From contig CP045477.1 of assembly GCA_009392915.1 (NCBI GenBank), forward strand, positions 160,001 to 224,000: a stretch of DNA of 64,000 nucleotides. Direction: 5' to 3'. The position numbers and the translations under genes were made by a program. This document shows, one piece after another, positions 5,456 through 52,421 of this stretch; within the stretch, counting starts at the first letter, position 1, and each line of letters opens with the position of its first letter. Source of the DNA: Candidatus Forterrea multitransposorum CG_2015-17_Forterrea_25_41. GTDB lineage: Archaea > Iainarchaeota > Iainarchaeia > Iainarchaeales > CSSED10-239. The notes below the pieces were generated by a model. That model saw nothing but the letters and a program-made list of their open reading frames with translations, ran no database searches and was not told the DNA's origin.

Positions 5456-5457
5456 AT

Positions 5458-14044: not shown

Positions 14045-14045
14045 A

Positions 14046-15383: not shown

Positions 15384-15411
15384 ATATATCTCTTTTTTTA
15401 AAAAATTATTA

Positions 15412-15511
15412 AAAATCCTTATATTTATAAATATTATGCCTAACATATAAGTATAATATATTTTAATAAATGATAGCTGATGTTTATAGATAGAATAAAA
15501 ATTCAAAGAAA
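15412..15511 (+). promoter_or_regulatory. 100-nt promoter/leader block, copy B, identical to 12492-12591
   Basis: Exact duplicate of copy A, sitting upstream of pilin-like gene C. Confidence 0.6.
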
Positions 15512-20098: not shown

Positions 20099-21391
20099 AT
20101 GTTTGGTCTTTTAAAAAAGAAATTCAAAGATTTGTCAGATAAAATATTAGGTAAATCTAAAGAAAAAATTGATTCTGAAGATCAAAGTCAAGAAGAAACT
20201 TCTTCTGATACTTCTAAGACTTTAGATGTTCCTGAAGAAAAATCTCCTGTTTCTAAAGAGCCAATATCTAATTCTGAAGAACTTTCTGTTCCTAAAGTTG
20301 AAGATGCTAAAGAAGAAATCCCTGTTCCTAAGGTTGAAGATGTTAAAGAAGAAAAATCTACTCCTAAGGTTGAAGATGTTAAAGAAGAAATCCCTATTCC
20401 TAAAGTTGAAGAAATTAAAGAAGAAAAACCTATTTTAAAAGAAGAAATAAAAGAAGATAAACAACCTTCAAAAGCATATACAGATTTAGAATCTAAAAAA
20501 GTTGAAGACGTAAAAAAAACAACTTTTACAAAAATAAAAAGTTTATTTTCATCAAAAATAAAATTATCTGAAAAAGAAATATCTGAATTTTTAGATGATT
20601 TTGAAATTTCTTTACTTGAAGCAGATGTTTCTATTGATTCTTCAACAGCAATTATTGAAGATTTAAAAAAAAGATTAGTTAATGCTTCTTTTTCAAAAAC
20701 AAATATCTTAGAAGATATTAAAAAAAATATTAAAGAAACTTTAAAAGAACAATTAAATATTGATTGTGATATTAATAATTATATTTCTCAAAAACAAAAT
20801 GAACCTTTAATAATTTTAATAATTGGACCTAATGGTGCTGGAAAAACAACAACTATTTCTAAATTTGCAAATCTTTATAAAAATCAAGGTAAATCTGTGG
20901 TTCTAGCTTCTTCAGATACTTTCAGAGCAGGAAGTATTGATCAATTAGAAGTGCATGCAAAGAGATTAGGTGTAAAAGTTGTAAAACAAAATTATGGTTC
21001 AGATCCTGCTGCAGTTGCTTTTGATGCAGTTGCTTCTGCTAAAGCAAATAAAAACGATGTTGTTTTAATTGATACTGCTGGTAGACAAGATACAAATATT
21101 AATCTAATGCAAGAACTCTCAAAAATAAAAAGAGTAGTAAAACCAGATCTTACAATTTATATTGGAGAATCTCAATCTGGACAAACAATTGTTGAACAAA
21201 TACAAAAGTTTGATAAAGAAATAGGTGTTACTGGAGTAATTTTAACAAAGATTGATACTGACCCAAAAGGTGGAGTTGCAATTTCTATTCTTAATGAAAT
21301 TAAAAAACCTATTTTCTATATTGGTACAGGTCAAGAGTATAATGATATAGAAAAATTTTCTCCAGAATATATTATTGAAAGAATTGTTTAG
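20099..21391 (+). CDS. ftsY: Signal recognition particle receptor FtsY
   Basis: N-terminal acidic A-domain with four VPKVEDVKEE(I/K)P repeats. The NG domain has GPNGAGKTTTISKFA, DTFRAGSIDQL and DTAGRQ motifs. Confidence 0.9.
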   Translation: MFGLLKKKFKDLSDKILGKSKEKIDSEDQSQEETSSDTSKTLDVPEEKSPVSKEPISNSEELSVPKVEDAKEEIPVPKVEDVKEEKSTPKVEDVKEEIPIPKVEEIKEEKPILKEEIKEDKQPSKAYTDLESKKVEDVKKTTFTKIKSLFSSKIKLSEKEISEFLDDFEISLLEADVSIDSSTAIIEDLKKRLVNASFSKTNILEDIKKNIKETLKEQLNIDCDINNYISQKQNEPLIILIIGPNGAGKTTTISKFANLYKNQGKSVVLASSDTFRAGSIDQLEVHAKRLGVKVVKQNYGSDPAAVAFDAVASAKANKNDVVLIDTAGRQDTNINLMQELSKIKRVVKPDLTIYIGESQSGQTIVEQIQKFDKEIGVTGVILTKIDTDPKGGVAISILNEIKKPIFYIGTGQEYNDIEKFSPEYIIERIV

Positions 21392-22208: not shown

Positions 22209-23612
22209 ATGGGCTTTGGAGAAAAATTAAAAAGTGCAATTGATAAAATTAAAAATTCAATGCATGTTGATAAAGATTTAATTAAAGAAGTTATTAAAGA
22301 TATTCAAAGAGCATTGATCTCTTCAGATGTAAATGTACAACTAGTTTTAAAAATTTCAAAAGAAATAGAAACTGAAGCTTTTGAAAAAATCCCTGAAGGT
22401 CTTTCAAGAAAAGAACATTTAGTTAAAACTTGTTATGATGTTATTTTAAAATATATTGGTGGAAGAGAACAAAAAAAGCTTCCTGAAAATCCAGAAACAA
22501 TTCTTCTTTGTGGTCTTTTTGGTTCTGGTAAAACAACAACTACTGCAAAACTTGCAAAATTCTATAAAAAAAGAGGTTTTAAAGTTGGAGTTATTGCTGC
22601 AGATGTTTACAGGCCAGCAGCTTATGAACAACTTGAACAATTATCAAAGCAAGTAGATTGTATTTTTTATGGTGAAAAAGAAAATAAAGTTGCAGGAGAA
22701 GTTGTTAAAAATGGTCTTTCTATTTTAAAGAAAAAAGGAGCTAATCTTATAATTGTTGATTCTGCTGGTAGATCTGCTTTAGACCAAGAGCTTACCAAAG
22801 AGCTTAAAGAAATACACTTACAATTAAATCCTAAATTTTCATTTTTAGTTCTTTCTGCAGATATTGGACAGGCTGCAAAAGATCAAGCTGAAAACTTTAA
22901 TCAAGCAGTTGGAGTTAATGGTGTAATAATAACTAAGCTTGATGGTTCTGCAAAAGGTGGTGGAGCTTTAACTGCTTGTTATATTACAAATTCTCCAATA
23001 TATTTTATTGGAACTGGAGAAAAAGTTGATGATTTAGAAATTTTTGATGCAAATAGATATCTTTCAAGAATCTTAGGTTTTGGGGATTTAGAAGGTCTTT
23101 TAGAAAAAGTTAAAGAACTTCAAGAAACTGAAGATTTACAAGATGTTAATCCTGATGATATTTTAAAAGGAGATTTTTCATTTTATCTTTTTAAAAAACA
23201 AATTTCAGCTGCTAAAAAATTAGGTCCTTTTAATAAGATTATAGGTATGCTTGGTATTGGTGGTAACATTTCAAAAGATCAAATGAATTTAGGTCAAGAA
23301 AAAATGAAAAAATATAAAGTTATGCTTGATTCTTTTACAAAAAAAGAACTTTATTTTGAACCTCAAGAAATAAATAAAAGCAGAATTAAAAGAATTTCAA
23401 ATGGTTCTGGAACAAAAGAAGAAGAAGTAAAAGAACTTGTTTCTCATGTTAAAAAAATGAAAAAAATGTTTAAACAATTTTCATCAAAAGGTGGAGGTTC
23501 TGCTGGAATGATGAAAAAGATGTTTGGTGGAAAAATGCCTGACATGTCAAAATTTAATGACATGGATCCTAAACAAATGGAAGATATGGCAAAGCAGTTT
23601 AAACTAAAATAA
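22209..23612 (+). CDS. srp54: Signal recognition particle protein SRP54
   Basis: GLFGSGKTTTTAKLA, DVYRPAAYEQL, DSAGR and a Met-rich C-terminal M-domain (MMKKMFGGKMPDM). Confidence 0.9.
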   Translation: MGFGEKLKSAIDKIKNSMHVDKDLIKEVIKDIQRALISSDVNVQLVLKISKEIETEAFEKIPEGLSRKEHLVKTCYDVILKYIGGREQKKLPENPETILLCGLFGSGKTTTTAKLAKFYKKRGFKVGVIAADVYRPAAYEQLEQLSKQVDCIFYGEKENKVAGEVVKNGLSILKKKGANLIIVDSAGRSALDQELTKELKEIHLQLNPKFSFLVLSADIGQAAKDQAENFNQAVGVNGVIITKLDGSAKGGGALTACYITNSPIYFIGTGEKVDDLEIFDANRYLSRILGFGDLEGLLEKVKELQETEDLQDVNPDDILKGDFSFYLFKKQISAAKKLGPFNKIIGMLGIGGNISKDQMNLGQEKMKKYKVMLDSFTKKELYFEPQEINKSRIKRISNGSGTKEEEVKELVSHVKKMKKMFKQFSSKGGGSAGMMKKMFGGKMPDMSKFNDMDPKQMEDMAKQFKLK

Positions 23613-23619
23613 AAAGGAT

Positions 23620-24483
23620 TTGTGTATTTTAATGATTGAAATAATTTTATTTATTAAACTTTTTATAATATTAATTGCCACAAGTATAGGTGCTTGGACA
23701 GACTATAAAACAGGGTATATCTATAACTGGATAACTTTTCCTTTAATTATCTTAGGTTTATTATTATTAATTTTAGAATCTTTTGTTTTATTTAATCTTG
23801 GTTGGTTTTATTTTTTAAAAGTGTTTATAATTGGTTTATTAATATATGGTATTGGTTATTTATTTTATTATTTTGGAAAATTAGGAGGAGGAGATGTAAA
23901 ATTATTTTTAGGAATTCATCTTTTAGTTCCTTATGTAAATGGTCAACTTTTAATTTTATGGGTTTTAATTTTATCTTCTCTATTATCTGTCTTAATTGTT
24001 TCAATTAAATATTTATTTATTCTTTTTAGAAAAATTACATTTACTGAATTTAAAAAAATTATAAAAACAAGAACCTCTAAAATGATTATTTATTTATTAA
24101 TGTTTATTTTTTTTGTTTTTCTCTTATATTCTGCAATCTATAATGTTGGTTTTTCAAAATATTATTACTTATTATTAATTCCTATATTTATAGGTCTTTT
24201 AACAGTTTTATTTGAAGAAGAAATTAAGAAATATATTTATCTTAAAAGAAAAGTTTTAAGGAAAATAGAAGAAGGAGATGTTTTAGCAATTGAGTTTTTA
24301 TCAAAAGAACTTCTTAATAAACTAAATATGGGAAATAGACAAGTTATTGAAGAAAAAGATTTATTGATTATTAAAAATTTAGATGTTAAATCTTTACCTA
24401 TATATGATAATCTTCCAAGATTTGGACCTTATATACTTTTAGGTTTTATTTTTTCTTTTTTATATTTATTTTTCTTATTTTAA
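23620..24483 (+). CDS. A24-family prepilin/preflagellin peptidase (PibD/FlaK-like), a polytopic membrane protein
   Basis: The first catalytic Asp is in IGAWTDYKTGYI and the second in YFGKLGGGDVKLFLG (GxGD-like). Multiple TM helices. It is the likely processor of the KRKA| and KG|A signal peptides in this window. Confidence 0.55.
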   Translation: MCILMIEIILFIKLFIILIATSIGAWTDYKTGYIYNWITFPLIILGLLLLILESFVLFNLGWFYFLKVFIIGLLIYGIGYLFYYFGKLGGGDVKLFLGIHLLVPYVNGQLLILWVLILSSLLSVLIVSIKYLFILFRKITFTEFKKIIKTRTSKMIIYLLMFIFFVFLLYSAIYNVGFSKYYYLLLIPIFIGLLTVLFEEEIKKYIYLKRKVLRKIEEGDVLAIEFLSKELLNKLNMGNRQVIEEKDLLIIKNLDVKSLPIYDNLPRFGPYILLGFIFSFLYLFFLF

Positions 24484-31300: not shown

Positions 31301-31564
31301 TTATTTATTTCTCATAAAAAACTCTAAAACTTCTTGTTTAGTTTTACCTGTTTTTTCTGCAACTTCTTTAATAATAATTTCTACAAATTTAGAAGATACT
31401 ACTTTATTTCCTTTTTTTAAAATTATTTCTCTACCATGACTATCTCTAAAAACAATATGTCTATGGTTTCCTTTTTCCTTTTCAAAACCAAGTTTATTGT
31501 ATATTCTTTCAAGTTGTTCTGGTCTTAATGTTGAAGGTTTTTTTCCATTAAAAGGTTTTGCCAT
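31301..31564 (-). CDS. hicA: HicA-like (YcfA family) mRNA-interferase toxin, with no recognisable HicB partner
   Basis: LERIYNKLGFEKEKGNHRHIVFRDSHGREIILKKGNKVVSSKFVEIIIKEVAEKTG follows the HicA pattern (l.k.Gf....kGSH..f.hp.g....vP.h...l..g.l.sIlkqag). Confidence 0.5.
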   Translation of the reverse strand: MAKPFNGKKPSTLRPEQLERIYNKLGFEKEKGNHRHIVFRDSHGREIILKKGNKVVSSKFVEIIIKEVAEKTGKTKQEVLEFFMRNK

Positions 31565-31578
31565 TTTTAATCTTTCCT

Positions 31579-32142
31579 TTATTTAAAATCCATATTTATT
31601 TTAATTTCTTCTAAAACAGCAGTAATAAATTCATTTAAGGGTATATTTAGTTTAGTTTCACATAATCTTATTTCTTCTCTTGAAACAGCTGCTGCAAATG
31701 TTTTGTCTTTAAATTTTTTAATAATAGATTTTGTTTCTGCATTTTTAATTTCTTTATCTGGTCTCATTAAAACATATGCTCTAATAATTCCAGTTAAGCC
31801 ATCTACAGAAAAGAGAGCATTTTCTACAGTTTCTTTTCTTTCTATTTTCAAAGCATCGTTATGTGATTTAATAATATCTATTATCTCTTGAGAGATTCCT
31901 TCTTCTTGTAATATTTTTTCTCCAACTAAACAATGCACATTAATATCTCCATTATATTTTTCAATATCAATGTCATGGAGTGCACCAATCAAAAACCATT
32001 CTTCTTGTTTTTCTTCTGGTAATTTAAGATATTTAGAAACTCCTTTCATTCCATAACCTACCATTAAACAATGTTCAAGGTTTGCTTTTTCTTTAATATG
32101 TTTGTTTAATATTTCTATAGTTTTTTCTTTTGTATTGTTCAT
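31579..32142 (-). CDS. HD-domain phosphohydrolase
   Basis: His...HD...D motif (LMVGYGMKG...FLIGALHDIDIEKYNGD). 187 aa, lying 15 nt upstream of the hicA-like gene. Confidence 0.55.
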   Translation of the reverse strand: MNNTKEKTIEILNKHIKEKANLEHCLMVGYGMKGVSKYLKLPEEKQEEWFLIGALHDIDIEKYNGDINVHCLVGEKILQEEGISQEIIDIIKSHNDALKIERKETVENALFSVDGLTGIIRAYVLMRPDKEIKNAETKSIIKKFKDKTFAAAVSREEIRLCETKLNIPLNEFITAVLEEIKINMDFK

Positions 32143-32154
32143 ATTTTAAAACCT

Positions 32155-35100
32155 TTAATTTTGATATTTATATCTTACAATAACAATTCCAGAACCACCA
32201 TTTCCACCATTTGCTGATGAATTTGTTGCTGATCCGTTTCCACCATTTCCTGTGTTTGCAGCAGCAGAAGATGCATCTGAGTGAGCATCACCACCTTTAG
32301 CATAAGTGTTTCCCCAAATGGTCATACCAGGACCTCCATTAGGTACTGTTCCAGGTCCTCCCGCTCCTCCTCCTCCACCAGCTCCAACATTAACAACAGA
32401 GGTTGCACCAGGATATCCAAATCCTGTATTAGGATACCCATCATTTGTACTTGGTTGTGTTGCACTTCCACCATTTGCAGGCACTGCACTATAAAGGTTT
32501 GCACCTCCACCTGAACCACCTGATGTACCATCTCTGGAAGGATTATCTCTTGATCCTCCACCACCACCACCATATGCAATTAAATTTTTAAATACAGAAT
32601 TATTTCCATTATTTCCTGTAAAGTCTTGATTTGTAGAACCTGTTCCTCCTGCTCCTACAGTAACAGTAATATTTCCAGTACTTGAAAGTGTGTAGTCTTC
32701 AACATATACAAGACCTCCAGCACCTCCTCCTCCAGGATTTCTTAAAGTATTTGTTCCTGCTTTTCCAGCACCTCCACCACCACCAACAACTAAAACATCT
32801 ACTTTTCCCTCTCCTAATGTTGTTACATTAAATGTTCCACTTGATGTAAAAGTATGATATTTATAGTCTCCAGAAGTTGTAACTGTTCCTCCTGTTGCTT
32901 CTAAATATCCTTGATTTATTGTTAAGTTTATAGATGCTCCTGCTGTTTGATATTGATCATTTACTATTAAAGTTATCTTATGTTCTCCTGATGATAGATT
33001 AGTTGTTGAAAAGTTACAAGTTGAACTTAAAGTTCCATCTATATTTGAATCCCAATAACATGAATGGCTTCCAGATGGATTTGTAATTGTTGAATTAAAA
33101 GTTAGGTTTTCGCCATAATTATGTGTTGATGAGTTTGAGGGAGTATCAATTGTAACTGATATTGGATTAGGTATGCTACGCATAAATATCCAAGATATAC
33201 CTACAATTCCAATTTCTTCAACTCTTAATAAAGGAATTGTACCATCGGGATCAAATGAAGAAATACTGACTGATGTAAAATCTCCACTTGTTCCTGTTAC
33301 AACTGTTGAATTATTAATTATTAAATTTCCTGAATTTGAAGAATAAGATGCAGCAGTAGATCCTAATCCATAATAGACTCTTAATTGGTTTATGTCACTA
33401 GGTCCATTCCATGTATTCATTGTAAGTAATCCATTATCTGCAGGTCCACTATAGAAAAATGATAAAAATTCAGGTCTTCTTGTATAACTTGCAAAATTAA
33501 CATTTACTCCATCATTATAATGTGTATAATAATCTAGATTATAACCATATGTAGATAGATCTGTAGTTAATATACGGTTACCATTCCATGCAGGATAAGA
33601 TGAGTCATAAGTATTATCTGTTGAAAATGAAGAATACAACATCCAACCTCCTCCATTATCTTCCATATTACAATAAATTTGAGTTGGAACTCCGTCTTTT
33701 AATATCCAATAAACTCCGTTTGTAGCACTTGGATTGTTATTTTTAATATACATTGCAGAAGGTGCTGCTTTTTCTGAAGAACTTCCATCTAAATCTATAA
33801 TTGTTATTGAAATATTTTTATCTATAGTTTGTTCTTGATCAGTAACAGATAATGTTATTGTATGTTCTCCAACTGTTAAACTACTTGTTGAAAAATCACA
33901 ATTACTTGATAAACTTCCATCTATAGATGATACCCAAGAACAACTATAACTTCCGTTTTCATTTTCTATTTGAGAATTAAAATCAATTGCTTCTCCAAAA
34001 CTGAATGTTTGTAAGTTTGTAGGAGAATTAATATTTATTGTAAGTTCTTCAACATATTCATTTTTAGTATTATCATAAATTGCTTTAATTTCATTTAAAT
34101 TTAAACTTCTGCCATATAGTCTATAGTCTGAAATCATTCCTTTAAAATATCTTGTATTTGTAGAATTTATTCCAAATTTAACTCCTCCACCTTGTGTTTC
34201 ATAACTATAAATTTCTTCTAATGTTTTTTCTAAGTTTCCATTAATATAACCTTTTAAAGTTTTTAATGTTTCATCATATGTAACTGTATAATTAATCCAT
34301 TTATTTTCTTCAACAGGATCTGAAAGCTCATAAGTTGAATATCCTCCATCTAAATCTCTCCATCTTATTTCCATTTTTTTATCAACAGGATTAATACTAA
34401 CTCTAAGATTATTTTTTTGAGACCAAAAGAAACTTTCATGTTCTAAACTTTGATTTTCTGTATAATATATCCATCCATTTATTGTAAATGAACTATAATC
34501 ACCTACATTTGAAACATTAATATAATCATTAGCTCCATCTAAATTTAATTTAGAACTACTATTCCAATTTGCAGTTCCAACAATACTTCCATTATTAGAA
34601 TTTCCTGAATAATCGTATACTGTGCTTCCTTCTCCTTCATCTATTTTCCAATATCCAATTATTTGATAATCAATACAGTCAAGTACATTATAGTTATTTG
34701 TTTTAATAGGTTTTACAATTTCTCTCCCTTTATCTGTATTTAATTTTAATATATAATTTTCTTCAGGAGCACATACAACATCTATTTCTTTAGTTTCTTT
34801 TTTTTCAATAGTTATTGGTTCTTCAAAAAATATATTTTTATTTAAATATTCTGTATCAACAGCATCTGATGCAATAAAATAACTAGTTAATACTAAATCT
34901 TGATTAATATTGTTGTTTGAAAGTACAATACTTTGATTTACAACTTCTTCAATTAAGATTTCATCTCCAATTCTTTGTATCTCAATTATAGGAATATTAT
35001 TATTTTTATCCACAACACTAAATCTTAATTCTTCAAGTCCAGGCATAATATCAATGTAGTTATAAAAAAGAATATTATTATTATAATCAATATTATAAAG

Positions 35101-35463
35101 TAGACTTGTTTCTTGTCTATTAATTATAAGTGATCCTATTTGGCTTTGTGTTTTTAGATTTTCAATACTTCTTTTATTTTTAATTTCTTGTCTTAAATAA
35201 AGATTACTTGAGTTATTATCAACTGTAATTGGGTCACTTAAATCTAAATAAACTTCTTTATAGCTTCCAACTTCTGAATCTTTTAAATCTGTTAAAATAT
35301 CATTAATATATGCTAAGTTATCTCTGTTGTTTTTCATTCTTTGTGAATCTTCTAGAGTTCCAAAATAATTCATTGCAAAATAAATAAATATACCTAAAAA
35401 TATAATACTTACAAAAAGAATTGCTATTCCTGAAAATAAAGATGTTACTCCTTTTTGATTCAT
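32155..35463 (-). CDS. Giant pilin-signal adhesin (1102 aa) with a class III signal peptide, LamG/ConA-like domain, PKD-like domains, a fibrinogen-related domain and a Gly-rich C-terminal beta-rich domain
   Basis: Signal MNQKG|VTSLFSGIAILFVSIIFLGIFIYFA. LamG_3 region IGYWKIDEGEGSTVYDYSGNSNNGSIVG...TINGWIYY. PKD-like repeats ending GEHTITLSVTDQEQT / GEHKITLIVNDQYQT. Fibrinogen motif GVYWILKDGVPTQIYCNMEDNGGGWMLY. C-terminal VDVLVVGGGGGAG...GGGGAGG...GSGIVIVRYKY. Confidence 0.7.
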   Translation of the reverse strand: MNQKGVTSLFSGIAILFVSIIFLGIFIYFAMNYFGTLEDSQRMKNNRDNLAYINDILTDLKDSEVGSYKEVYLDLSDPITVDNNSSNLYLRQEIKNKRSIENLKTQSQIGSLIINRQETSLLYNIDYNNNILFYNYIDIMPGLEELRFSVVDKNNNIPIIEIQRIGDEILIEEVVNQSIVLSNNNINQDLVLTSYFIASDAVDTEYLNKNIFFEEPITIEKKETKEIDVVCAPEENYILKLNTDKGREIVKPIKTNNYNVLDCIDYQIIGYWKIDEGEGSTVYDYSGNSNNGSIVGTANWNSSSKLNLDGANDYINVSNVGDYSSFTINGWIYYTENQSLEHESFFWSQKNNLRVSINPVDKKMEIRWRDLDGGYSTYELSDPVEENKWINYTVTYDETLKTLKGYINGNLEKTLEEIYSYETQGGGVKFGINSTNTRYFKGMISDYRLYGRSLNLNEIKAIYDNTKNEYVEELTININSPTNLQTFSFGEAIDFNSQIENENGSYSCSWVSSIDGSLSSNCDFSTSSLTVGEHTITLSVTDQEQTIDKNISITIIDLDGSSSEKAAPSAMYIKNNNPSATNGVYWILKDGVPTQIYCNMEDNGGGWMLYSSFSTDNTYDSSYPAWNGNRILTTDLSTYGYNLDYYTHYNDGVNVNFASYTRRPEFLSFFYSGPADNGLLTMNTWNGPSDINQLRVYYGLGSTAASYSSNSGNLIINNSTVVTGTSGDFTSVSISSFDPDGTIPLLRVEEIGIVGISWIFMRSIPNPISVTIDTPSNSSTHNYGENLTFNSTITNPSGSHSCYWDSNIDGTLSSTCNFSTTNLSSGEHKITLIVNDQYQTAGASINLTINQGYLEATGGTVTTSGDYKYHTFTSSGTFNVTTLGEGKVDVLVVGGGGGAGKAGTNTLRNPGGGGAGGLVYVEDYTLSSTGNITVTVGAGGTGSTNQDFTGNNGNNSVFKNLIAYGGGGGGSRDNPSRDGTSGGSGGGANLYSAVPANGGSATQPSTNDGYPNTGFGYPGATSVVNVGAGGGGGAGGPGTVPNGGPGMTIWGNTYAKGGDAHSDASSAAANTGNGGNGSATNSSANGGNGGSGIVIVRYKYQN

Positions 35464-35993
35464 TATTCTTCACTTTTATTAAAATCTAATAATTCTATTT
35501 CTATAATTATTTTATTTTCATCAAGATTATAATCTTGATAACTAAAAACATAATTTGTTTGTCCTTGATTTAAATTAATTAAATTACAATCTATGTTTAT
35601 TTGGGAATTATTGTTTATTGTTTTTTTAAAATAGGCTCTATTTGATTCTTTACTAACTTCAATATCTTTTATTGTAACTAATTGATCATCTCTAATCTCT
35701 GAGTTAAAGATTATTTCTCCTCTGATTTCATTTTGATTACAATCAATCTCTAAGACTTCTGGATTATATATTGTAATTTCTTTTGCTGAAAATCTAGATT
35801 TTGAAATTTCTTGAAAAGTATTTGAAATTAAATCTATGTTTTCAATCATTTGATCAAAATTATATTTTTCTTGATTTTTTTCAATAGTATCTTGCACCAT
35901 ATAAAGTATGCTTGAAAGAATGGCTATACTTACAAATATATATAGAAAGTATGAAAATAAATTTGCTGCTCCTTTTTCTTTTCTTAAAAACAT
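35463..35993 (-). CDS. Small pilin-like protein (176 aa) with a class III signal peptide, a candidate minor pilin of the adhesin operon
   Basis: MFLRKEKG|AANLFSYFLYIFVSIAILSSILYMV. Its TAA shares one base with the downstream ATG (TAATG) and it lies 12 nt downstream of the 802-aa gene. Confidence 0.55.
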   Translation of the reverse strand: MFLRKEKGAANLFSYFLYIFVSIAILSSILYMVQDTIEKNQEKYNFDQMIENIDLISNTFQEISKSRFSAKEITIYNPEVLEIDCNQNEIRGEIIFNSEIRDDQLVTIKDIEVSKESNRAYFKKTINNNSQINIDCNLINLNQGQTNYVFSYQDYNLDENKIIIEIELLDFNKSEE

Positions 35994-36005
35994 ATTTTAA
36001 AACCT

Positions 36006-38414
36006 TTATTCTATATTTAAATTTAAATTTTCAGTAATAGTTTGTTCTTGATCTGTCACTGATAATGTTATTGTGTGTTCTCCAACAGACAATGTTGAAA
36101 TATTAATATCACAATTATCTAAAGAATATTGATTATTATATAGTTTTGAAACATCTTCTTGATCTATTGCTTCATCAAAAATTAAAATATCATCCATTTT
36201 ACCATTAAAAAAATGATCATAAGTTCCAACAACTCCATTATAAGCTATAGCAGCACCAATTGCAACTGGCAAGCTATTTGATATTGATCCATAAGTTCCA
36301 ATAGGAACACTAGCATCAAGAATTCCATTAATATAAAAATTTAAATCTTGGTTGTCTTTATAAGACATAATAACATTATACCAATTATTTTGAGCATATA
36401 GAGAACCACAATTACTACAACTTTTATAGTTACTTTGAGCATCATCAATACCAGAATAAATATCCCAATTACTAGAAACATTATTAATCATTAATTGCCA
36501 ACCTGCATAACTTCCTCCGGCACCTCTTCCTCTAGTATTAATTATTCTTTGATATCCAGAACCAGTAGGATTTATCCATGTTGATACAGTAATTTCATCT
36601 AAATTTGAACTAATATTATTATCTAAAGTTGCATAGCTTGAAGTTCCATTAAAACTTAATGCATTATTTTCTCTTCCAAATCTGTCTGTTGTTCTAGTTA
36701 CATTAAATAAAGTTCCGTCAATATTCCCTATATTATCATAAATAGTATCTCCTGTAGTTTCTTCAAATCTATATTCTGCATATGGTTTTTGATATGTTAA
36801 ATTTCCATCAATTGATGATGCCCAAGAACAAGAATAATTTCCTACATTATTTGTAATATTTGTATCTATTTCTATATTATCTCCTAAAGTATATACATTT
36901 GAATCAATATTTATTTCTGCATTTAAAGATGGATTTTCTACAGTTATATTTTTTGTTTCAGTAATAGTTTGTTCTTGATCGGTCACTGATAAAGTTATGG
37001 TGTGTTCTCCAACAGACAATGTTGAAATATTAATATCACAATTATTTGAAGAATATTGATTATTATATAGTTTTGAAACATCAGAACTAGAAATTCCATT
37101 ATTAAAAATAATAATATCATCTAACTTTCCATTAAAAAAATGATTAAAAGTTCCATACACTCCATTATATGCAACTGATGTCCCAATTGCTGTTGGTAAG
37201 CTGTTTGTTATATTTCCATATGGATCTAAATTTACACTTTCATCTAATTGTCCATCAACATAAAAATTAAGATTATTATCTTCATCAAAAGACATAACAA
37301 AATGATACCATTTTCCAAGTGTCAAACTATTTCCACAAGTGTTACAACCAGTAAATGGACTTGTTGAAGAATCAACTCCTGAATAAAGATAAAAATTACT
37401 AGTTGTATCATTAATTAATATTTGCCATCCTTCAACATCTGAAGCTGCAGATCCTCTTGTGTTTATAATTCTCTGATATGTACTAGATCCATTTGATAAA
37501 AACCATCCTGATATTGCAAATCTATTAAGTTCTTGACTTATATTATTATCTAATAAAACATAGCTTGAAGTTCCATTAAAGCTTAAAGCCTTATTTTCTC
37601 TTCCAAATCTATCTGTAGTTCTTGTAATGTTATATCCATTACCATCAATATTACCTATTAAATCATAAATTATATTTCCTGAAGTTTCATTAAAATCCCA
37701 TCTTGCATAAGGTGTTTTACTTGGTATTAAGTTTCCATCAATTGATGATGCCCAAGAACAAGAATAACTTCCAACAGGGTTATTTACTTCTGATGTGAAA
37801 TTAATTGGTTCTGAAAATAAGAAAGAAGTTGCTTCTATTGGATTTGAAATATCTATAGTTGTCACAGTTTCTATTGGATTTAGATTTGGTCTTTCTTTTT
37901 GAAGATTTAATTTTTCAGAAGAATCAATTTCTCTTAAAAAACTTATTTTGTTTCTACTTATTTTTTTAATATAAATAATTGTTTTTGTGTTATTAAGATA
38001 TATTCCTTGTTCTATATCTATTCCATTGATGTCTAAACCAACAATTAATTTTTCAAATTCTCTAAAAGTATAAATTTCTCCTTCTCTAATTAATTGTCCT
38101 TCTTTATAATAATTTCCAGAAATATTATGAAATATTTCTATTTTATCTAAATTAGAATCTGCTTCAAAACTTAAACCATCAAGGTCTATTACAAAAGAGA
38201 CAACAGATCCATTTGAATTTTCTAAAACTTCTTGTATTTTTCCTTGAATTTCTTCAATATACATTCTAGATTCTTCAAATTTTTGTTGTGAATTATTTCT
38301 TTCAATTGCAGGAACAACTCCTTGATAAATAAGTCCTACAACAGCAACAATAATAAATATAACTAAGATATAACTTAAAATTTCAGAAGCTCCTCTCTGA
38401 TTTAGTCTTTTCAT
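36006..38414 (-). CDS. Giant pilin-signal adhesin (802 aa) with a class III signal peptide and two tandem [PKD-like + LamG/ConA-like lectin] units
   Basis: Signal MKRLNQRG|ASEILSYILVIFIIVAVVGLIY. Two copies of ...SYSCSWASSIDGNL...YARWDF.ETSG..IYD.IGNIDG.....TRTTDRFGREN.ALSFNGTSSY (LamG_3 signature). Each ends with the PKD-like GEHTITLSVTDQEQTIT. Confidence 0.7.
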   Translation of the reverse strand: MKRLNQRGASEILSYILVIFIIVAVVGLIYQGVVPAIERNNSQQKFEESRMYIEEIQGKIQEVLENSNGSVVSFVIDLDGLSFEADSNLDKIEIFHNISGNYYKEGQLIREGEIYTFREFEKLIVGLDINGIDIEQGIYLNNTKTIIYIKKISRNKISFLREIDSSEKLNLQKERPNLNPIETVTTIDISNPIEATSFLFSEPINFTSEVNNPVGSYSCSWASSIDGNLIPSKTPYARWDFNETSGNIIYDLIGNIDGNGYNITRTTDRFGRENKALSFNGTSSYVLLDNNISQELNRFAISGWFLSNGSSTYQRIINTRGSAASDVEGWQILINDTTSNFYLYSGVDSSTSPFTGCNTCGNSLTLGKWYHFVMSFDEDNNLNFYVDGQLDESVNLDPYGNITNSLPTAIGTSVAYNGVYGTFNHFFNGKLDDIIIFNNGISSSDVSKLYNNQYSSNNCDINISTLSVGEHTITLSVTDQEQTITETKNITVENPSLNAEINIDSNVYTLGDNIEIDTNITNNVGNYSCSWASSIDGNLTYQKPYAEYRFEETTGDTIYDNIGNIDGTLFNVTRTTDRFGRENNALSFNGTSSYATLDNNISSNLDEITVSTWINPTGSGYQRIINTRGRGAGGSYAGWQLMINNVSSNWDIYSGIDDAQSNYKSCSNCGSLYAQNNWYNVIMSYKDNQDLNFYINGILDASVPIGTYGSISNSLPVAIGAAIAYNGVVGTYDHFFNGKMDDILIFDEAIDQEDVSKLYNNQYSLDNCDINISTLSVGEHTITLSVTDQEQTITENLNLNIE

Positions 38415-38513: not shown

Positions 38514-38586
38514 GGTCCGAATAGTGTAGTGGTTAGCATATGGGTCTGTGGATCCCATGACTCGGGTTCGAATCCCGGTTCGGACC
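38514..38586 (+). tRNA. tRNA-His (anticodon GTG)
   Basis: Anticodon arm TGGGT-CTGTGGA-TCCCA gives GTG. T-arm TCGGG-TTCGAAT-CCCGG. Acceptor GGTCCGA/TCGGACC. The exact 5' end and the acceptor/T-stem junction are ambiguous by 1 nt. A genomically encoded G-1 is possible. Confidence 0.7.
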
Positions 38587-38739
38587 CTCTTTATTCTTTT
38601 AAATTGTTTTAAAAATTATTTTTTCTATTTTTTTAAAAATATTTTTATATGTTTTGCCATTCATTTGTTTTTTTAAAAAAACAATCTATTTTTAAATCAT
38701 ATGATTTACTATATTTTTAAAATATAAAGGTGATATATA

Positions 38740-40188
38740 ATGCACGAAGATCTTTTTAACACCCTAAACCCACATCAAAAAGCATATATTAATTTTGAAA
38801 TTCCAAATGTTAAAAATGGAGAATATATGTTATGTGCTTTCCATTTAAGACCTGGAGGAGATTTAAATATCTTACAAGCAGCTTGTGAAACAGCAGCTGA
38901 ATCTTCAACTGGTACAAATTTTTTAGTAAACACAGAAACTCCTTTTGCAAGAGAGATGAATGCTTTAGTTTATAAATTAGATTTAGAAAAAAGTTTAGTA
39001 TGGATAGCATATCCTTGGAGACTTTTTGATAGAGGAGGAAATGTTCAAAATATCTTAACATACATTGTAGGAAATGTTTTAGGTATGAAAGAAGTTTCTG
39101 CAATTAAACTTTTAGATGTTTGGTTTCCACCAGCTATGCTTGAACAATACGATGGACCTTCCTATACTTTAGATGATATGAGAAAATATTTAGATGTTTA
39201 TGATAGACCAATTTTAGGAACAATTATAAAACCAAAAATGGGTTTAACTTCAGCAGAATATGCAGAAGCATGCTATGATTTCTGGGTTGGTGGAGGAGAT
39301 TTTGTTAAAAATGATGAACCTCAAGCAAACCAAGATTTCTGTCCATATGATAAAATGGTAAAACATGTAAAAGAAGCTATGGATAAAGCTGTAAAAGAAA
39401 CTGGTCATAAAAAAGTACATTCTTTCAATGTTTCAGCTGCAGATTATGATACAATGATTGAAAGATGTGAAATGATTGTTAATGCAGGTTTTGAAAAAGG
39501 ATCTTATGCATTTTTAATAGATGGAACTACTGCAGGTTGGATGGCAGTTCAAACTTTAAGACGTAAATATCCTGATGTTTTCCTTCATTTCCATAGAGCA
39601 GGACATGGAGCATATACAAGACCTGAAAATCCAATTGGTTTTTCTGTTTTAGTATTATCTAAATTTGCAAGACTTGCAGGAGCTTCTGGTATTCATACAG
39701 GAACTGCAGGTGTAGGAAAAATGGCAGGTACTCCAACAGAAGATATTACAGCTGCAACTGGTATTTTAAAATTAGTCTCAGAAGGACATATTTTCCATCA
39801 ATCATGGTCAACTGTTCCTGAAAAAGATTTAGATGTTGTAAAGCTTGCACAAGAGGATGAAGCTCATCATGTTATCTTAGAAGATGATAGTTGGAGAGGT
39901 CTTAAAAAATGTACTCCAATAATCTCTGGTGGTCTAAATCCAACTCTTCTTAAACCATTTATTGATTTAATGGGTGGAGTTGATTTTATAACAACTATGG
40001 GTGCTGGTTGTCATGCTCATCCAAAAGGTACACAAGCAGGCGCTAAGGCTTTAGTTCAAGCATGTGAAGCATACCAGAAAGGAATTTCTATTGAAGAATA
40101 TTCAAAAGATAGACCTGAGCTTGCAGAAGCTATTGAGTTTTTTACAAAGAAAAAGCATGTTGATAACTTAAAGAAGGAGTTTTCTTAA
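38740..40188 (+). CDS. rbcL: Ribulose-1,5-bisphosphate carboxylase, form III (archaeal nucleotide-salvage type), large subunit
   Basis: YINFEIPNVKNGEYMLCAFHLRPGGD...TGTNF, the catalytic Lys region GGGDFVKNDEPQANQ, and the loop-6 and C-terminal GGLNPTL..GGVDFITTMGAGCHAHPKG. Confidence 0.9.
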   Translation: MHEDLFNTLNPHQKAYINFEIPNVKNGEYMLCAFHLRPGGDLNILQAACETAAESSTGTNFLVNTETPFAREMNALVYKLDLEKSLVWIAYPWRLFDRGGNVQNILTYIVGNVLGMKEVSAIKLLDVWFPPAMLEQYDGPSYTLDDMRKYLDVYDRPILGTIIKPKMGLTSAEYAEACYDFWVGGGDFVKNDEPQANQDFCPYDKMVKHVKEAMDKAVKETGHKKVHSFNVSAADYDTMIERCEMIVNAGFEKGSYAFLIDGTTAGWMAVQTLRRKYPDVFLHFHRAGHGAYTRPENPIGFSVLVLSKFARLAGASGIHTGTAGVGKMAGTPTEDITAATGILKLVSEGHIFHQSWSTVPEKDLDVVKLAQEDEAHHVILEDDSWRGLKKCTPIISGGLNPTLLKPFIDLMGGVDFITTMGAGCHAHPKGTQAGAKALVQACEAYQKGISIEEYSKDRPELAEAIEFFTKKKHVDNLKKEFS

Positions 40189-45814: not shown

Positions 45815-48013
45815 TTATCTATATGTTTCATCTATATAGCTAATATCTTCTCCAATAACAACTTCTGTTTCTTCTTGACTTGTAAAGTTATATGTCTTTA
45901 ATAAATTATTAGTTATAGTATACAATTCATCTCCAATATATAAACTTCTAGCAATAGATCCATAGTAATATCTATTTTTCTTTGTGTGATCAATAGTTGT
46001 TATTTTACTAATACCATCTTTATCTGCTTTTAAAACAACAAATCCAAACTCAGAAGATGATGTATTATATCTTTCAGTAATAGGAAGTACAACTAAATTA
46101 TTCTTTGAAATATATAAGAATGCTTTATGATCGTAAGATACTTGTGTATTTGAATAACTTGCACTTGAAACCCATTTTCCAACTTCTTTAGGATTTGAAA
46201 AATCACTTACATCAAACAAAGCAACCTTAACTCCAGAATTATTAGTTCCACCCCATTCATTAGCTTCAGTTTCTTGACCAATACCTAATATTAAATTTTC
46301 AGATATTGGATGAAGATAATCAGAGTAACCTGAAATTTTTAAATAACCTAGAACTTTTGGTTTTGTAGGGTTTTCTAAATCAATTACAAAGAAAGGATCA
46401 ACTTGTCTGTATGTAACTAAATAAAGTTTATCTCCCATAAATCTAGCACTATATATTCTTTCATTTGGTGCAATTTCATCAACAATTCCAACTTCATTTA
46501 AAGAACTATTTAAAACTGTAACTGCATTTTTTGAAATAGTAGAATATCCGTTGTAATCTTGATAAGTTGTTGCAACTCTTAAATAACCTTCTTCTTCATC
46601 TAATGAAAATTGATTTAAAAGTTTTCCTTTAACTTCTCCTTGTGATATACTTCCAAAGCTACCATCTAAAAGAAGTTCAATTCTGTTAATGTATGTTTTA
46701 TCATATTGATTTCTTTCTTCTTGATAATATTTATCAGATTCTTCTTGTATTAAATTATATAATTCTTCTTTTTCTTCTTTGTCAAGAGTTTGATAGTAGT
46801 TATTTAATATTTCAATTAATTTTTCAGAATCATTTAAATTACTTTCAATTTCTTTAGCTATATTTGTAGGATATACTTTTTCATAGATTGATTCAAAAAC
46901 TAAATCTTTTGAATAGTTATTCCATCCAAATCTAAAGAAAGGATAATACATATTTTTTTCAGTTACAACATATAGGTTATTATTACTCATATATATTGTA
47001 TTTGAATTATCAAGTATGATTTCTATACTATCAATAATTGAAGATTCTTTTTCTAAATAATTAAGTGAAGTTAAATTATACATTACTTTAGATTCTTCAC
47101 TAACATCTCTTGGCATAATTATTTTAGATTCAAAATTACTTACAACATCATTTTTAATTTCTTTAACAGGCATTATAAATCTATCATAATAGATGTTAGG
47201 GTTAAAATCATATAGATAATCATTAGTTATAATATATACAATTCCATCTTTCATTCTTGATTGATAGTAGTTGCCTTTAATTTCTACGCTGTTAAGTTTT
47301 GAAAGAGAATTTTCTTCTATTCTATAAGTTTCAACAACAGTAAATGGTATATAAGTCATTTGAGGATAAAGATAAGAATATTGAGTAAATTTACTTTCTA
47401 CAATATTTTTTTCAATTATTACATATAAAAGGTCTTCTGTATCTAAGAACATTCCTTTAATTGTTAAATATTCTGCATTTTGATCATTAATTTTAACAGT
47501 ATATTTTTCTTCATCAGCTATAGGAACATCAACATCATTTATTACTGTTATTGTTTTGTCTTTTGCAATAAATATTTGTTTTCCATTAGTTTTTACAATA
47601 TCTCCTTCATCTATACCAGAAACTTGTACATTAGTTTGAGAAAAATCATTTTCAGCTCCTGTTGATTGAACAGAACTATCAGTTGCCATAATAGGCATTG
47701 ATTCTTCCATGGTTTTAGACATATCTCCTACTCTAATACTATTACTTGAATTAGTGGTAGTTAAAAGAGTTAATAGTTCTTGGGAGGTAATTGTTACAAA
47801 TGGTGATTCTTCATTTGTTTTAAAATCACTATATGTTAAATTTTCATAGTTTTTTTCTGTTGATTGATCACTAAGATATTCATCTTGGTTATCATCTATT
47901 ATTTTATTTTTTAAAATATTTTGATTAATTACAAGTCCAACAACTAATAGTGCAAGAACAAGTATTATAATCCCTAAAAATAAATTTGATTTATTTTTCA
48001 TATATCTTTTCAC
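45815..48013 (-). CDS. Large secreted, membrane-anchored hypothetical protein (732 aa), possibly with a beta-propeller domain
   Basis: N-terminal TM anchor LFLGIIILVLALLVVGLVI. Long beta-rich Asn/Tyr-rich sequence. The domain assignment is tentative. Confidence 0.3.
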   Translation of the reverse strand: MKRYMKNKSNLFLGIIILVLALLVVGLVINQNILKNKIIDDNQDEYLSDQSTEKNYENLTYSDFKTNEESPFVTITSQELLTLLTTTNSSNSIRVGDMSKTMEESMPIMATDSSVQSTGAENDFSQTNVQVSGIDEGDIVKTNGKQIFIAKDKTITVINDVDVPIADEEKYTVKINDQNAEYLTIKGMFLDTEDLLYVIIEKNIVESKFTQYSYLYPQMTYIPFTVVETYRIEENSLSKLNSVEIKGNYYQSRMKDGIVYIITNDYLYDFNPNIYYDRFIMPVKEIKNDVVSNFESKIIMPRDVSEESKVMYNLTSLNYLEKESSIIDSIEIILDNSNTIYMSNNNLYVVTEKNMYYPFFRFGWNNYSKDLVFESIYEKVYPTNIAKEIESNLNDSEKLIEILNNYYQTLDKEEKEELYNLIQEESDKYYQEERNQYDKTYINRIELLLDGSFGSISQGEVKGKLLNQFSLDEEEGYLRVATTYQDYNGYSTISKNAVTVLNSSLNEVGIVDEIAPNERIYSARFMGDKLYLVTYRQVDPFFVIDLENPTKPKVLGYLKISGYSDYLHPISENLILGIGQETEANEWGGTNNSGVKVALFDVSDFSNPKEVGKWVSSASYSNTQVSYDHKAFLYISKNNLVVLPITERYNTSSSEFGFVVLKADKDGISKITTIDHTKKNRYYYGSIARSLYIGDELYTITNNLLKTYNFTSQEETEVVIGEDISYIDETYR

Positions 48014-50972: not shown

Positions 50973-52421
50973 TTGTGTTTTATTATGATTTTCAAACAAT
51001 CAAAGAATCAAATTAAAAGAGATTTCTCTTTTTCTGTAAAAGATGGGATTTTTTGGGTACTAATGAATTCTATAGCTATAATTTTTTTAGTTCCATATTT
51101 AGTTTCTTTAGGTGCAAATTCTTTTCAAATAGGTCTTTTAAATTCATTTCCTTTATTTATAACTTCTTTTTTAGTTTTAATATCTTATAAACTTTTAAAA
51201 ATATTTAAATCTAAAAAACATGCAGTTGTAATTTTTTTAACATTACAAGCTTTAATGTGGATTCCTCTTGCAATGGCTTATTTCTTTTTTCCAAATTCAA
51301 TTACTATTTGGATTATAATTTTAATTTATACAATAATAACTGCTTTAGGAACAATTATTCATCCAATTTACATGGACTGGATAAGAAAACTTTTTCCAAC
51401 AAAACAAATGGGTTCTTATATTGCAAAAAAAAATATAATTTTAGAGTTTGTTTCAATTTTTCCAATTTTTTTAATAGGTTATATTTTAGATGTTATTTTC
51501 AAATCAAATACTTTTATTGGTTATTCAATAATTTTTGTATTTGCAGGAATATTTAGATATTTTTCAACAAGATTTTTAAATAAAATGAGTGAAACAGAAG
51601 ATAAAGAAGCTATTTTAAAACTTGTAAAAGAAAAAGAAAAAATTCCTCTTTTAAAATCTTTTAAAGATGAAGTTATAAAAGATAAGTCTTTTTTAAAGTT
51701 TTTAATTTTTATCATTCTATCATATATTGGTATTCACTTAGCAACTTCTTATGTTTCTTATTTTGTTTTAAACTTTTTAAATTATTCTTCTACTCAATAT
51801 GTTCTATGGAAAATTTCTTTTATTTTAGGAACTGTTTTAAGTTTAAGTTATTGGGGTTATATTTCAGATAAATATAGTCCTGTAAAAGTTTTACAAATAA
51901 GTACTTTATTTATGCCTTTATTTTTAATAATTCCTGCATTCTTTTATTCTAGTTATTCTTTAATGATTTTTTCAATTTTTGTTGGAGGTGTTATTTTTGG
52001 TGCTTTTAATTTAGGGGTTTTAGATTATCTTTTTAAAAATATAAAAAGAGATTTAATAGGTCATAGTTCTTATTTTTTAATAATACAAGCAAGTTCAATT
52101 TTTATTGGAACTCTTCTAGGTTCTGGAATAATTTATTTAGCAACAAAATTTTATTCTTCAGAATTCAAGGCTTTAATATTTTTATTTGTATTTACAATAT
52201 TTTTTAGATACATAGCATTTTTCTATTCTTTAAAGCTTAAAAAATTAGAAAGAAGAGATCTTAGATTTTTTAAATATGTTATTTTTCAAAGACCTGTTCT
52301 TTATGGTTTACTTCAATTTACTCATCTTTCACATGAAGAAAAAAAATTACTACTTGATTTAAAATTAAAATCTGAATTTAAAAAAATTAAATCAAAATTA
52401 TTTAATCAGAAAAAACAGTAG
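50973..52421 (+). CDS. Polytopic membrane transporter, MFS-like
   Basis: About 12 TM helices with a central cytoplasmic loop (KMSETEDKEAILKLVKEKEK). The true start is probably at MIFKQSK. Confidence 0.4.
   Translation: MCFIMIFKQSKNQIKRDFSFSVKDGIFWVLMNSIAIIFLVPYLVSLGANSFQIGLLNSFPLFITSFLVLISYKLLKIFKSKKHAVVIFLTLQALMWIPLAMAYFFFPNSITIWIIILIYTIITALGTIIHPIYMDWIRKLFPTKQMGSYIAKKNIILEFVSIFPIFLIGYILDVIFKSNTFIGYSIIFVFAGIFRYFSTRFLNKMSETEDKEAILKLVKEKEKIPLLKSFKDEVIKDKSFLKFLIFIILSYIGIHLATSYVSYFVLNFLNYSSTQYVLWKISFILGTVLSLSYWGYISDKYSPVKVLQISTLFMPLFLIIPAFFYSSYSLMIFSIFVGGVIFGAFNLGVLDYLFKNIKRDLIGHSSYFLIIQASSIFIGTLLGSGIIYLATKFYSSEFKALIFLFVFTIFFRYIAFFYSLKLKKLERRDLRFFKYVIFQRPVLYGLLQFTHLSHEEKKLLLDLKLKSEFKKIKSKLFNQKKQ

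Follow-up and report, generated by a model that had tools for sequence, protein, structure and literature searches.

The 64-kb window analysed here (the whole stretch of DNA introduced above, from contig CP045477.1) carries on its minus strand three tightly packed genes, referred to below as A, B and C. As judged from their sequences, the three products are probably type-IV-pilin-like proteins, each built on a core of about 170 residues in which a class III signal precedes a long, hydrophobic alpha-helix and then a small beta domain. In A and C, this core is followed by large sets of lectin-type modules, and these modules differ between closely related strains. The initial annotation had placed at this locus three co-oriented genes joined by a TAATG overlap and a 12-nt gap, and all of these points, coordinates included, were borne out in the form of three minus-strand open reading frames (ORFs). 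Indeed, 12 nt containing AAGGT lie between the A stop and the B start, and the B stop and C start overlap in the TAATG at 35463. The genes, their cores and the modules of A and C, including domains of the immunoglobulin (Ig) type and a module resembling carbohydrate-binding modules (CBM) and, in part, the fibrinogen-related domain (FReD), are as follows.

36006-38414, minus strand: gene A, 802 aa (ORF listing), a core followed by two tandem PKD-like/LamG units
37887-38414, minus strand: A core (residues 1-176), with leader MKRLNQRG/A (here and below a slash in an N-terminus marks the predicted processing site), hydrophobic helix and small beta domain
36939-37868, minus strand: A repeat unit 1 (residues ~183-492), a split PKD-like domain (..SCSWASSIDGNL / NCDINISTLSVGEHTITL..) with a LamG domain of ~240 aa between its two conserved Cys
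36009-36938, minus strand: A repeat unit 2 (residues 493-802), nested PKD-like/LamG, best Laminin_G_3 stretch at 589-756
35463-35993, minus strand: gene B, 176 aa, small non-modular pilin-like protein and constant member of the trio
32155-35463, minus strand: gene C, 1102 aa (ORF listing, Pfam and NCBIfam), in the order pilin-like core, unannotated region, LamG, PKD-like unit, GGGW/CBM-like module, PKD-like unit, Gly-rich domain
34969-35463, minus strand: C core (residues 1-165), with leader MNQKG/V, hydrophobic helix and conserved core
34084-34539, minus strand: C LamG (ConA-like), residues 309-460, Laminin_G_3 with Pfam 3.2e-17, 63.5 bits against 27.6
33796-34050, minus strand: C PKD-like Ig unit 1 (intact), residues 472-556, holding the left breakpoint at ~33837
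33163-33783, minus strand: C YCNM..GGGW module, residues 561-767, first ~50 aa FReD/intelectin-like, predicted body a CBM-like beta-sandwich
32914-33168, minus strand: C PKD-like Ig unit 2 (intact), residues 766-850, sub-threshold PKD match (E 0.0015), holding the right breakpoint at ~33100
32167-32847, minus strand: C Gly_rich_2 (PF21722), residues 873-1099, Pfam 2.6e-23, 83.6 bits against 24.3, profile positions 1-226 of 226

A short basic leader and a K/R-G pair (residues 5-8) open all three proteins and lead into a hydrophobic stretch some 22 residues long: MKRLNQRG/ASEILSYILVIFIIVAVVGLIY in A, MFLRKEKG/AANLFSYFLYIFVSIAILSSILY in B (i.e., MFLRKEKG/AANLFSY...) and MNQKG/VTSLFSGIAILFVSIIFLGIFIY in C. 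The uncharged stretches that follow the RG/A, KG/A and KG/V sites have mean Kyte-Doolittle values of 2.2-3.1 (16-17-residue window), and no AxA-type site comes after them. The class III assignment was made with a home-made rule ([KRDE][GA] and, within six residues, an uncharged hydrophobic 16-mer) and not with FlaFind or SignalP. Applied to all ORFs of the window with all their alternative starts, this rule gave 10 matches, six of them credible (A, B, C and a second trio of genes at 12560-17333), the other four being polytopic membrane proteins of the MFS or DoxX type or internal starts. In nine B orthologues (52-100% identical overall), K7, G8, A10, N11 and L12 are invariant, as are C85 and C136. 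The recurrence of the motif at residues 5-8 in three neighbouring genes and in all their orthologues thus argues that it is not a chance pattern, and it agrees with the experimentally studied archaeal pilin processing sites KG/Q, RA/V and RA/L (PMC4371748). The presence of archaeal class-III-type N-termini on all three proteins, as first proposed, is therefore sustained by the rule-based scan.

These observations bear on a more ordinary possibility, in which A, B and C would belong to a variable adhesin island as Sec-dependent type II membrane or secreted proteins, and their K/R-G pairs and hydrophobic N-termini would be coincidental signal anchors. In its favour are the reliance of the class III call on a rule of our own and the failure of any pilin profile to exceed its threshold (see below). 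However, the hydrophobic stretch comes right after the conserved K/R-G and is followed by no AxA-type site, KG-A-x-N-L is kept in B orthologues that are otherwise only 52-81% identical, and the pattern, which matches the known archaeal sites (PMC4371748), is common to three adjacent genes and to the second trio. Moreover, a candidate processing enzyme is encoded 8 kb from A, B and C, in a gene that is syntenic in the related contigs L001 and L004. We hence regard the Sec-type explanation as highly improbable.

23620-24483, plus strand: Peptidase_A24 gene (prepilin/class III signal peptidase), candidate processing enzyme, Pfam 2.4e-10, 41.2 bits against a cut-off of 26.5

The second trio (12560-14044, 14046-15383 and 15480-17333, plus strand) consists of paralogous pilin-like genes of 494, 445 and 617 aa. 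Their near-identical N-termini, ..K(R)KA/ISPLIATILLVVVA(I/V)AIIGIVLSWGKGFTNTTLS, are of the classic archaeal Pilin_N type, with E-values of only 0.015-0.04 against Pfam Pilin_N, and are followed by 400-570 aa of unannotated, sequon-rich sequence. Genes 1 and 3 have their first ~165 and last ~60 residues in common and differ in the middle; they may form a variable-payload set.

Regarding the cores, residues 1-176 of A align with B at 25% identity (142 aa, E 6e-8), which makes the two paralogues. The cores behave as autonomous units, and sister strains have an A gene of 180 aa that encodes nothing beyond the core. B is 172-177 aa long in every orthologue within this operon (52-81% identical); NCBI lists a protein identical to it (100%) as 'hypothetical protein GW835_02730 [archaeon]', and contigs that carry it reach 839,632 bp. 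In L004, which belongs to another Iainarchaeum species, the A core is 59-63% identical, depending on the alignment, and the C orthologue is a protein of 355 aa composed of the core (its first 166 aa; 59% identical over 161 aa) and two Ig units, the C N-terminus being also found in proteins P0003 and P0004 (45-52% identical over local alignments). Comparison of the window with L004 gives 59-63% identity for the three cores, against 74-91% for the flanking genes, which indicates that the cores evolve faster than their neighbours, as exposed proteins would. What emerges is the pattern of modular pilins, i.e., a constant small B together with A and C cores that bear differing payloads, or in the case of A no payload, in relatives.

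This core family is very small. A B-family profile searched against 1.84 billion representative proteins retrieved 21 proteins at E <= 0.001, a third of which (P0027-P0030, P0036, P0037 and P0042; 491-1118 aa) have a B-like core followed by DUF2341 and/or Laminin_G_3. Such fusions of B-like cores to DUF2341 and LamG match the tip-adhesin architecture predicted by Makarova et al. (PMC4858521). Within GTDB, the B-family alignment found only two species (99% and 61% identity), a yield too low for a broad phylogenetic profile. Since both are Candidatus (I)ainarchaeum, the window can be assigned to the Iainarchaeota, and the archaeon it comes from is, by these matches, a relative of Iainarchaeum (Diapherotrites) within the DPANN archaea. 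Separately, a protein of 3247 aa (P0045) matches the B profile partially in eight separate stretches and possibly contains a repeated beta-domain derived from the pilin core.

As to the payloads, A and C look extracellular and carry modules of lectin or carbohydrate-binding type, as had been proposed, in view of matches to profile hidden Markov models (HMMs), a high density of sequons and a low K+E content. N-x-S/T sequons number 2.7 per 100 aa in A and 2.2 in C, and K+E makes up 8.5% of both, compared with mostly 0-0.9 sequons (1.2-1.5 in a few cases) and 20-25% K+E in the clearly cytoplasmic proteins of the window, a composition that fits exported glycoproteins. Laminin_G_3 (PF13385) is found twice in A (1.3e-36, 126.4 bits against a gathering cut-off of 27.6), and these two LamG domains, the LamG of C and its Gly-rich C-terminal domain, all announced by the initial annotation, are above the Pfam gathering scores. 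When whole A and C were compared with PDB sequences, only intelectin (~50 aa) and an S-layer LamG were matched. Membership of A in the TafC equivalog was rejected, the match being confined to the LamG part (65 bits against a cut-off of 410).

The other recurrent element is a unit of 85 aa with the signature C-x-W-x-S-x-I-D-G, 15 residues and then G-x-H-x-I-T-L. Seven of its eight copies match Pfam PKD (best 1.6e-5) and its profile matches collagenase PKD structures at E 0.03, for which reason we call it a PKD-like Ig unit; the PKD modules initially annotated thus have consistent but weak matches, all of those in A and C lying below the gathering score (E 0.0015-0.015). In A, the two halves of the signature are 240-241 aa apart instead of the 15 aa seen in intact units, indicating that the PKD-like unit is split each time by a LamG nested within it. 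Of the two PKD+LamG units described earlier in A, both LamG domains are hence present, but nested and not in tandem with PKD. The resulting 309-aa unit is itself tandemly duplicated (927-nt period, 71-88% DNA identity). Nesting extends to related proteins, with a Gly-rich domain inside the PKD-like unit of P0001 and P0004 (inserts of 316-318 aa) and a LamG inside that of P0002 (224 aa).

A fibrinogen-related domain had also been assigned to C, an assignment that has to be revised. Pfam gave no match to a full-length FReD (PF00147) in C, and the NCBIfam model GGGWT_bact 'fibrinogen-like YCDxxxxGGGW' (NF040941, 46 positions) matches residues 570-609 with 50.3 bits against a cut-off of 30. Intelectin-1 (4wmq) is matched at E 6.6e-4 over ~50 residues only. 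The likeness to FReD and intelectin, an X-type lectin, is limited to this N-terminal motif (..A-P-S-A..G-x-Y-W-I....Y-C-x-M....G-G-G-W), whereas the body of the module is predicted to be CBM-like, CBM beta-sandwiches being the best fold matches of its model.

The operon varies among strains. The identical arrangement of an 802-aa A, B and an 1102-aa C was found on the 24 contigs examined, the one listed being 663,598 bp long, a recurrence that rules out an assembly artefact or chimera as the cause of the giant genes. In L001, a 149-kb contig from the Joint Genome Institute (JGI), the flanks are 96.4-97.7% identical to the window DNA, with two exceptions within the operon, whose DNA breakpoints were mapped by blastn against L001 only.

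35998-37887, minus strand: strain-variable segment 1, all of the A lectin payload, missing in L001-L003 and L013
33101-33836, minus strand: strain-variable segment 2, a 736-nt cassette with the GGGW module, replaced by 1282 nt in L001

The 1282-nt replacement of L001 encodes a PKD-like unit with a nested Gly-rich domain and further PKD-like sequence, and both breakpoints in C lie in or beside the direct-repeat families D4 and D5, which correspond to the PKD-like units. A third haplotype (L013, protein P0002) combines a short A with a C in which the corresponding position is taken by an Ig unit enclosing a LamG, as seen by comparison of proteins and not of DNA. Closely related strains have therefore conserved cores and swappable lectin cassettes. 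A diversity-generating retroelement was considered as the source of this variation and rejected, as there is no reverse transcriptase among the scanned ORFs and whole cassettes vary, in place of point hypermutation.

The order A, B, C and then an HD-domain gene is conserved in L001, L004, L006, L008 and L013, and payloads are again diverse in the more distant loci. A of L004 has the same core followed by CHB_HEX_C_1, Fn3_assoc and DUF285, and A of L009 reaches at least 990 aa. C has 946 aa with at least four PKD-like units and DUF285 in L006, and 1785 aa with two Gly_rich_2 domains, LamG and Flg_new_2 in L008. Downstream of the L006 C gene, two ORFs of 113 and 317 aa (DUF285 and Laminin_G_3; 4566-5835) overlap the 946-aa gene and each other, and look like a frameshifted or decaying continuation of an adhesin gene.

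Part of this pool of modules is, according to sequence matches, common to the operon and to phage genomes. The GGGW module finds its nearest relatives in stand-alone proteins of 214-265 aa, which are 44-53% identical to it and lack signal peptides. One of them, P0011, is encoded on a contig of 79 kb that also has Phage_T4_gp13, a T4 neck protein and a Peptidase_S74 protein, and is flanked by three small LamG_3 proteins; another, P0015, is on a 32-kb contig with HNH endonuclease and DNA ligase genes and adjoins small LamG_3 and PA14/GLEYA proteins. GGGW homologues match several PHROG families, PHROG 1325 being among the phage module families named, and the Gly-rich region of C matches phrog_2295 (1e-42) and phrog_863 'tail fiber assembly' (2.4e-13). 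Among cultured phages, the N-terminal part of the GGGW module is present in T4-like cyanophages, where it is annotated as hypothetical; a tblastn search of cultured phages with the Gly-rich domain found no match, probably from low-complexity filtering, and nothing relevant was found in the literature on PF21722 or GGGWT.

From their position near tail and neck genes and their domain types, the phage GGGW and LamG proteins may be receptor-binding proteins. They resemble the payloads of the operon by the GGGW module (~50% identical) located beside LamG_3 or PA14 and by a cassette-style replacement of distal binding modules, and differ from them in being small, stand-alone, without a pilin-type N-terminus and mostly annotated as hypothetical. 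On L014 (6361-9362), which is T4-like, and L015 (6012-9460), which carries the HNH and DNA ligase genes, we also observed runs of four or five small genes (~204-258 aa) for single lectin-type domains (LamG_3, PA14/GLEYA and the GGGW module), which look like a set of alternative receptor-binding tips.

Our preferred reading, to which we assign a probability of about 0.6, is that A, B and C are cleaved modular minor pilins that form a tip or priming complex and display exchangeable adhesin modules to another cell, the trio being probably the cell-recognition tool of this archaeon. We infer that A, B and C would be co-transcribed as one set and that Peptidase_A24 would cut each of them after its K/R-G. 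Through their three helices, they could then assemble as a small heterotrimer that primes or tips a type IV filament or a short pseudopilus, and in which B would be the constant structural partner and A and C the modular pilins. Their payloads, i.e., LamG, the GGGW/CBM-like sandwich and the Gly-rich domain, which PKD-like Ig units carry or space apart, would project outward and bind glycans or proteins on the surface of another cell, possibly a host. Recombination at the near-identical PKD-like repeats would insert, delete or replace whole lectin cassettes and thereby re-tool specificity, some cassettes being nested in the Cys-flanked loop of an Ig unit and the module pool being partly common with phage genomes. 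More tentatively, one may envision a plug-in adhesin display, in which the PKD-like units of a conserved pilin-like heterotrimer act as sockets, with entire LamG or Gly-rich domains lodged in the loop between the two conserved Cys and other modules located between units, for cassettes that are exchanged by recombination, drawn from a pool common with phages, and that set the partner or host range of an Iainarchaeum lineage; we regard this extension as possible but speculative.

The proposal of a tip complex builds on the combination of a small constant protein, two cores with interchangeable bulky modules and a prepilin peptidase, in parallel to PilA, PilB and PilC of Streptococcus sanguinis. 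In this bacterium, a small minor pilin stabilises two modular pilins (with a vWA and a ConA-like lectin module), and the complex has been modelled at the pilus tip (PMC9934059, PMC8179133). As in our operon, three proteins with class III signals are encoded together, one small (PilA, like B) and two modular, and PilC carries a lectin module of the ConA-like/LamG superfamily, as do A and C; in both cases, the role proposed is to display adhesins at the tip of a filament. In contrast, A, B and C are archaeal, have no detectable pilin-module homology with these proteins and no E+5, and are encoded outside a pil machinery locus. Their payloads are multi-domain and of 600-900 aa (vs ~350), with nested-domain Ig scaffolds, and vary among near-identical strains.

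Several results weigh against this reading. No curated pilin HMM, such as Pilin_N (PF07790), was above threshold for A, B or C (Pfam at E <= 10, NCBIfam); DUF7289 reached 20.6 bits on A, compared with a cut-off of 27, and was not found on B or C. The B-family profile had no match among PDB sequences, the best fold matches are pilins but weak ones, with weak fold evidence for B in particular, and the C core resembles A and B only in its helix. Concerning the machinery, Pfam was run on most window ORFs of at least 90 aa (four batches of ten and a relaxed re-scan), and no type IV pilus (T4P) ATPase (T2SSE) or platform protein (T2SSF/TadC) was found, either among the scanned ORFs of the window or in the 10 kb flanking the locus in L001 and L004; the N-terminus scan likewise yielded no candidate for a small major pilin in the window. 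Archaeal class III signals also occur on proteins that are not part of pili, e.g., the binding proteins of the Sulfolobus bindosome (PMC4371748). Finally, we found no evidence of an attached lifestyle in the Iainarchaeum (Diapherotrites) lineage, and Iainarchaeota are not demonstrated episymbionts.

During the machinery scan, the P-loop ORF of 840 aa at 52402-54924 (minus strand) was considered as a T4P ATPase and rejected, as it looks HerA/FtsK-like instead. In this ATPase (GKRGGGK / IDEAH / ATQRP), the Walker A motif is interrupted by an intein of ~400 aa with a LAGLIDADG endonuclease domain.

Part of these results would be accounted for if A, B and C were membrane-anchored surface adhesins without any pilus, gathered in a bindosome-like complex and using their class-III-type N-termini, cleaved or not, only as anchors. 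The lack of assembly ATPase, platform or major pilin genes among the scanned ORFs of the window, the absence of a pilin HMM above threshold and the existence of class III signals on non-filament proteins (PMC4371748) all go in this direction, as do payloads of 600-900 aa, which are very bulky for filament subunits. Against it, the three conserved cores of ~170 aa, made of a helix of ~60 residues and a beta domain, look more like pilin modules than simple anchors, and their best fold matches, although weak, are pilins. Moreover, versions of A reduced to the core make little sense for an anchor without payload, and the tips of bacterial filaments do accommodate bulky modular pilins (PMC9934059). 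We consequently consider that simple membrane anchoring is unlikely. For modules of such size, a tip or the membrane would be the only suitable place, which does not agree with the lectin array along a filament that had initially been pictured.

The target of the complex is a distinct matter. With the same machinery as in the modular-pilin reading and a difference in the target alone, the trio could mediate recognition of self or kin (strain aggregation, e.g., for DNA exchange) or tether polysaccharides for feeding, and not capture a host. Sulfolobus Ups pili, which read species-specific S-layer N-glycans, are an archaeal precedent (PMC7064770); cassettes differ here between strains that are ~97% identical in DNA, CBM- or LamG-like modules are also of a type that binds free polysaccharides, and host attachment has not been demonstrated for Iainarchaeota. 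On the other hand, window ORF scans revealed no glycoside hydrolase or uptake genes linked to the operon, a dependent DPANN lifestyle would agree with the small genome (contigs of 0.66-0.84 Mb) and with the form III-like RuBisCO, and efficient host binding by the ultrasmall Saccharibacteria depends on a pilin that has a large accessory domain (PMC11623550). Such a role in kin recognition or feeding appears quite improbable to us, and recognition of another cell by tip-borne modular pilins remains our favoured explanation.

With regard to the gene neighbourhood, the tight co-directional spacing of A, B and C continues downstream of C, so that the operon, initially described as one of three genes, may be a transcription unit of five. 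The HD-domain gene begins 12 nt after C, the TAAAGGTTTTAAAATATG junction being common to the A/B and C/HD gaps (direct repeat D7), and an 87-aa gene follows 14 nt beyond it, the pair spanning 31301-32142 on the minus strand. The HD gene, presumably for a cytoplasmic HD phosphohydrolase, comes after C in all related loci whose sequence reaches that far. Upstream of A, an AT-rich spacer of ~100 nt precedes a divergent tRNA-His and a RuBisCO gene, and the adjacency of RuBisCO and the operon is kept in all related contigs that are long enough (L001, L003, L004, L012 and L013).

31579-32142, minus strand: HD-domain gene, 187 aa, 12 nt downstream of C, TAAAGGTTTTAAAATATG junction
38515-40188, plus strand: tRNA-His and form III-like RuBisCO large subunit (482 aa), divergent, upstream of the operon

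The window as a whole is archaeal by gene content (S19e, L31e, eIF6, prefoldin, Hjc) and has a G+C content of 20-34%. The Peptidase_A24 gene is directly downstream of an SRP54 gene (22209-23612), with FtsY (20099-21391) close by; targeting and pilin-processing genes are thereby clustered, and the pairing of peptidase and SRP54 is also seen in the sister strain L001. Two further genes possibly encode surface proteins: an ORF of 744 aa at 246-2480 (plus strand), without Pfam match, which with 13% Asn and 1.75 sequons per 100 aa may be a surface glycoprotein, and a Beta_propel protein (PF09826, 7e-130) of 732 aa at 45815-48013 (minus strand), found at the same relative position in L004.

Pilin-lectin fusions had been presented as uncharacterised, which is an overstatement. 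Indeed, a pilin fused to a ConA-like lectin, PilC of S. sanguinis, has been characterised structurally and functionally (PMC9934059), and modular pilins bearing PF13385 have been catalogued in bacteria (PMC8179133). In archaeal T4P loci, those of DPANN included, large proteins with class III signals and DUF2341, adhesin-like or galactose-binding domains have been predicted (PMC4858521, PMC5498576, bioRxiv 10.64898/2026.04.22.720090), and the DPANN archaeon Mia14 has been noted for LamG genes linked to T4P loci (PMC5498576). Episymbiotic Saccharibacteria have minor pilins of lectin-like type that are implicated in binding to the host, and PilX2 is required for this binding to be efficient (PMC11623550). 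The association of pilin and lectin, the layout with one small and two modular pilins, and adhesin-like class III proteins in archaeal T4P are thus already known or predicted.

The closest archaeal counterparts are the predicted tip adhesins of T4P 'system 1', or of the Methanococci-Thermococci-DPANN clade, which are also large, adhesin-like, class-III-type proteins with ConA-like or DUF2341 modules, together with an SPIII galactose-binding-domain protein (PMC4858521; bioRxiv 10.64898/2026.04.22.720090). Their loci contain ATPase and TadC genes, whereas the A/B/C operon has neither; A, B and C are moreover devoid of DUF2341 and belong to a very small core family (for B, 21 representatives in 1.84 billion proteins), and the strain-level exchange of cassettes and the modules shared with phages were not found in the published accounts. 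PilX1 and PilX2 of Saccharibacteria, members of the candidate phyla radiation (CPR), offer another comparison. Here too, pilins with additional C-terminal modules, a jelly-roll lectin-like one in PilX1 and a beta-propeller in PilX2, occur in an ultrasmall organism with a reduced genome, and glycan recognition has been implicated (PMC11623550). That system is bacterial and type IVa pilus-like, with known major pilins and machinery, genetics and cryo-electron tomography, whereas ours comes from an uncultured archaeon. In the literature consulted, we found no description of an archaeal trio with such a clean separation of core and payload or of a pilin-core family this small, nor of lectin domains nested in the Cys-flanked loop of a PKD-like scaffold, of whole-cassette replacement between strains ~97% identical, or of a module pool common with T4-like phages.

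To our knowledge, the recognition of partner cells by DPANN archaea is essentially unknown at the molecular level, and DPANN pilins usually remain unannotated. With three conserved pilin-like cores and recognisable binding modules, the trio is a compact and concrete candidate for this function. The three haplotypes present in one species amount to natural 'swap experiments' deposited in public metagenomes, which make specificity testable without cultivation. The concept of modular pilins, established in Gram-positive bacteria and CPR, would extend to Archaea with two mechanistic twists, namely the nesting of binding domains in an Ig scaffold and the sharing of modules with phage genomes. If the plug-in arrangement were true, it would represent an archaeal cell-surface counterpart of the host-range switching of phage tail fibres. 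Even if these proteins turned out not to be borne by a filament, they would still provide a clear case of strain-level exchange of adhesin cassettes in an ultrasmall archaeon.

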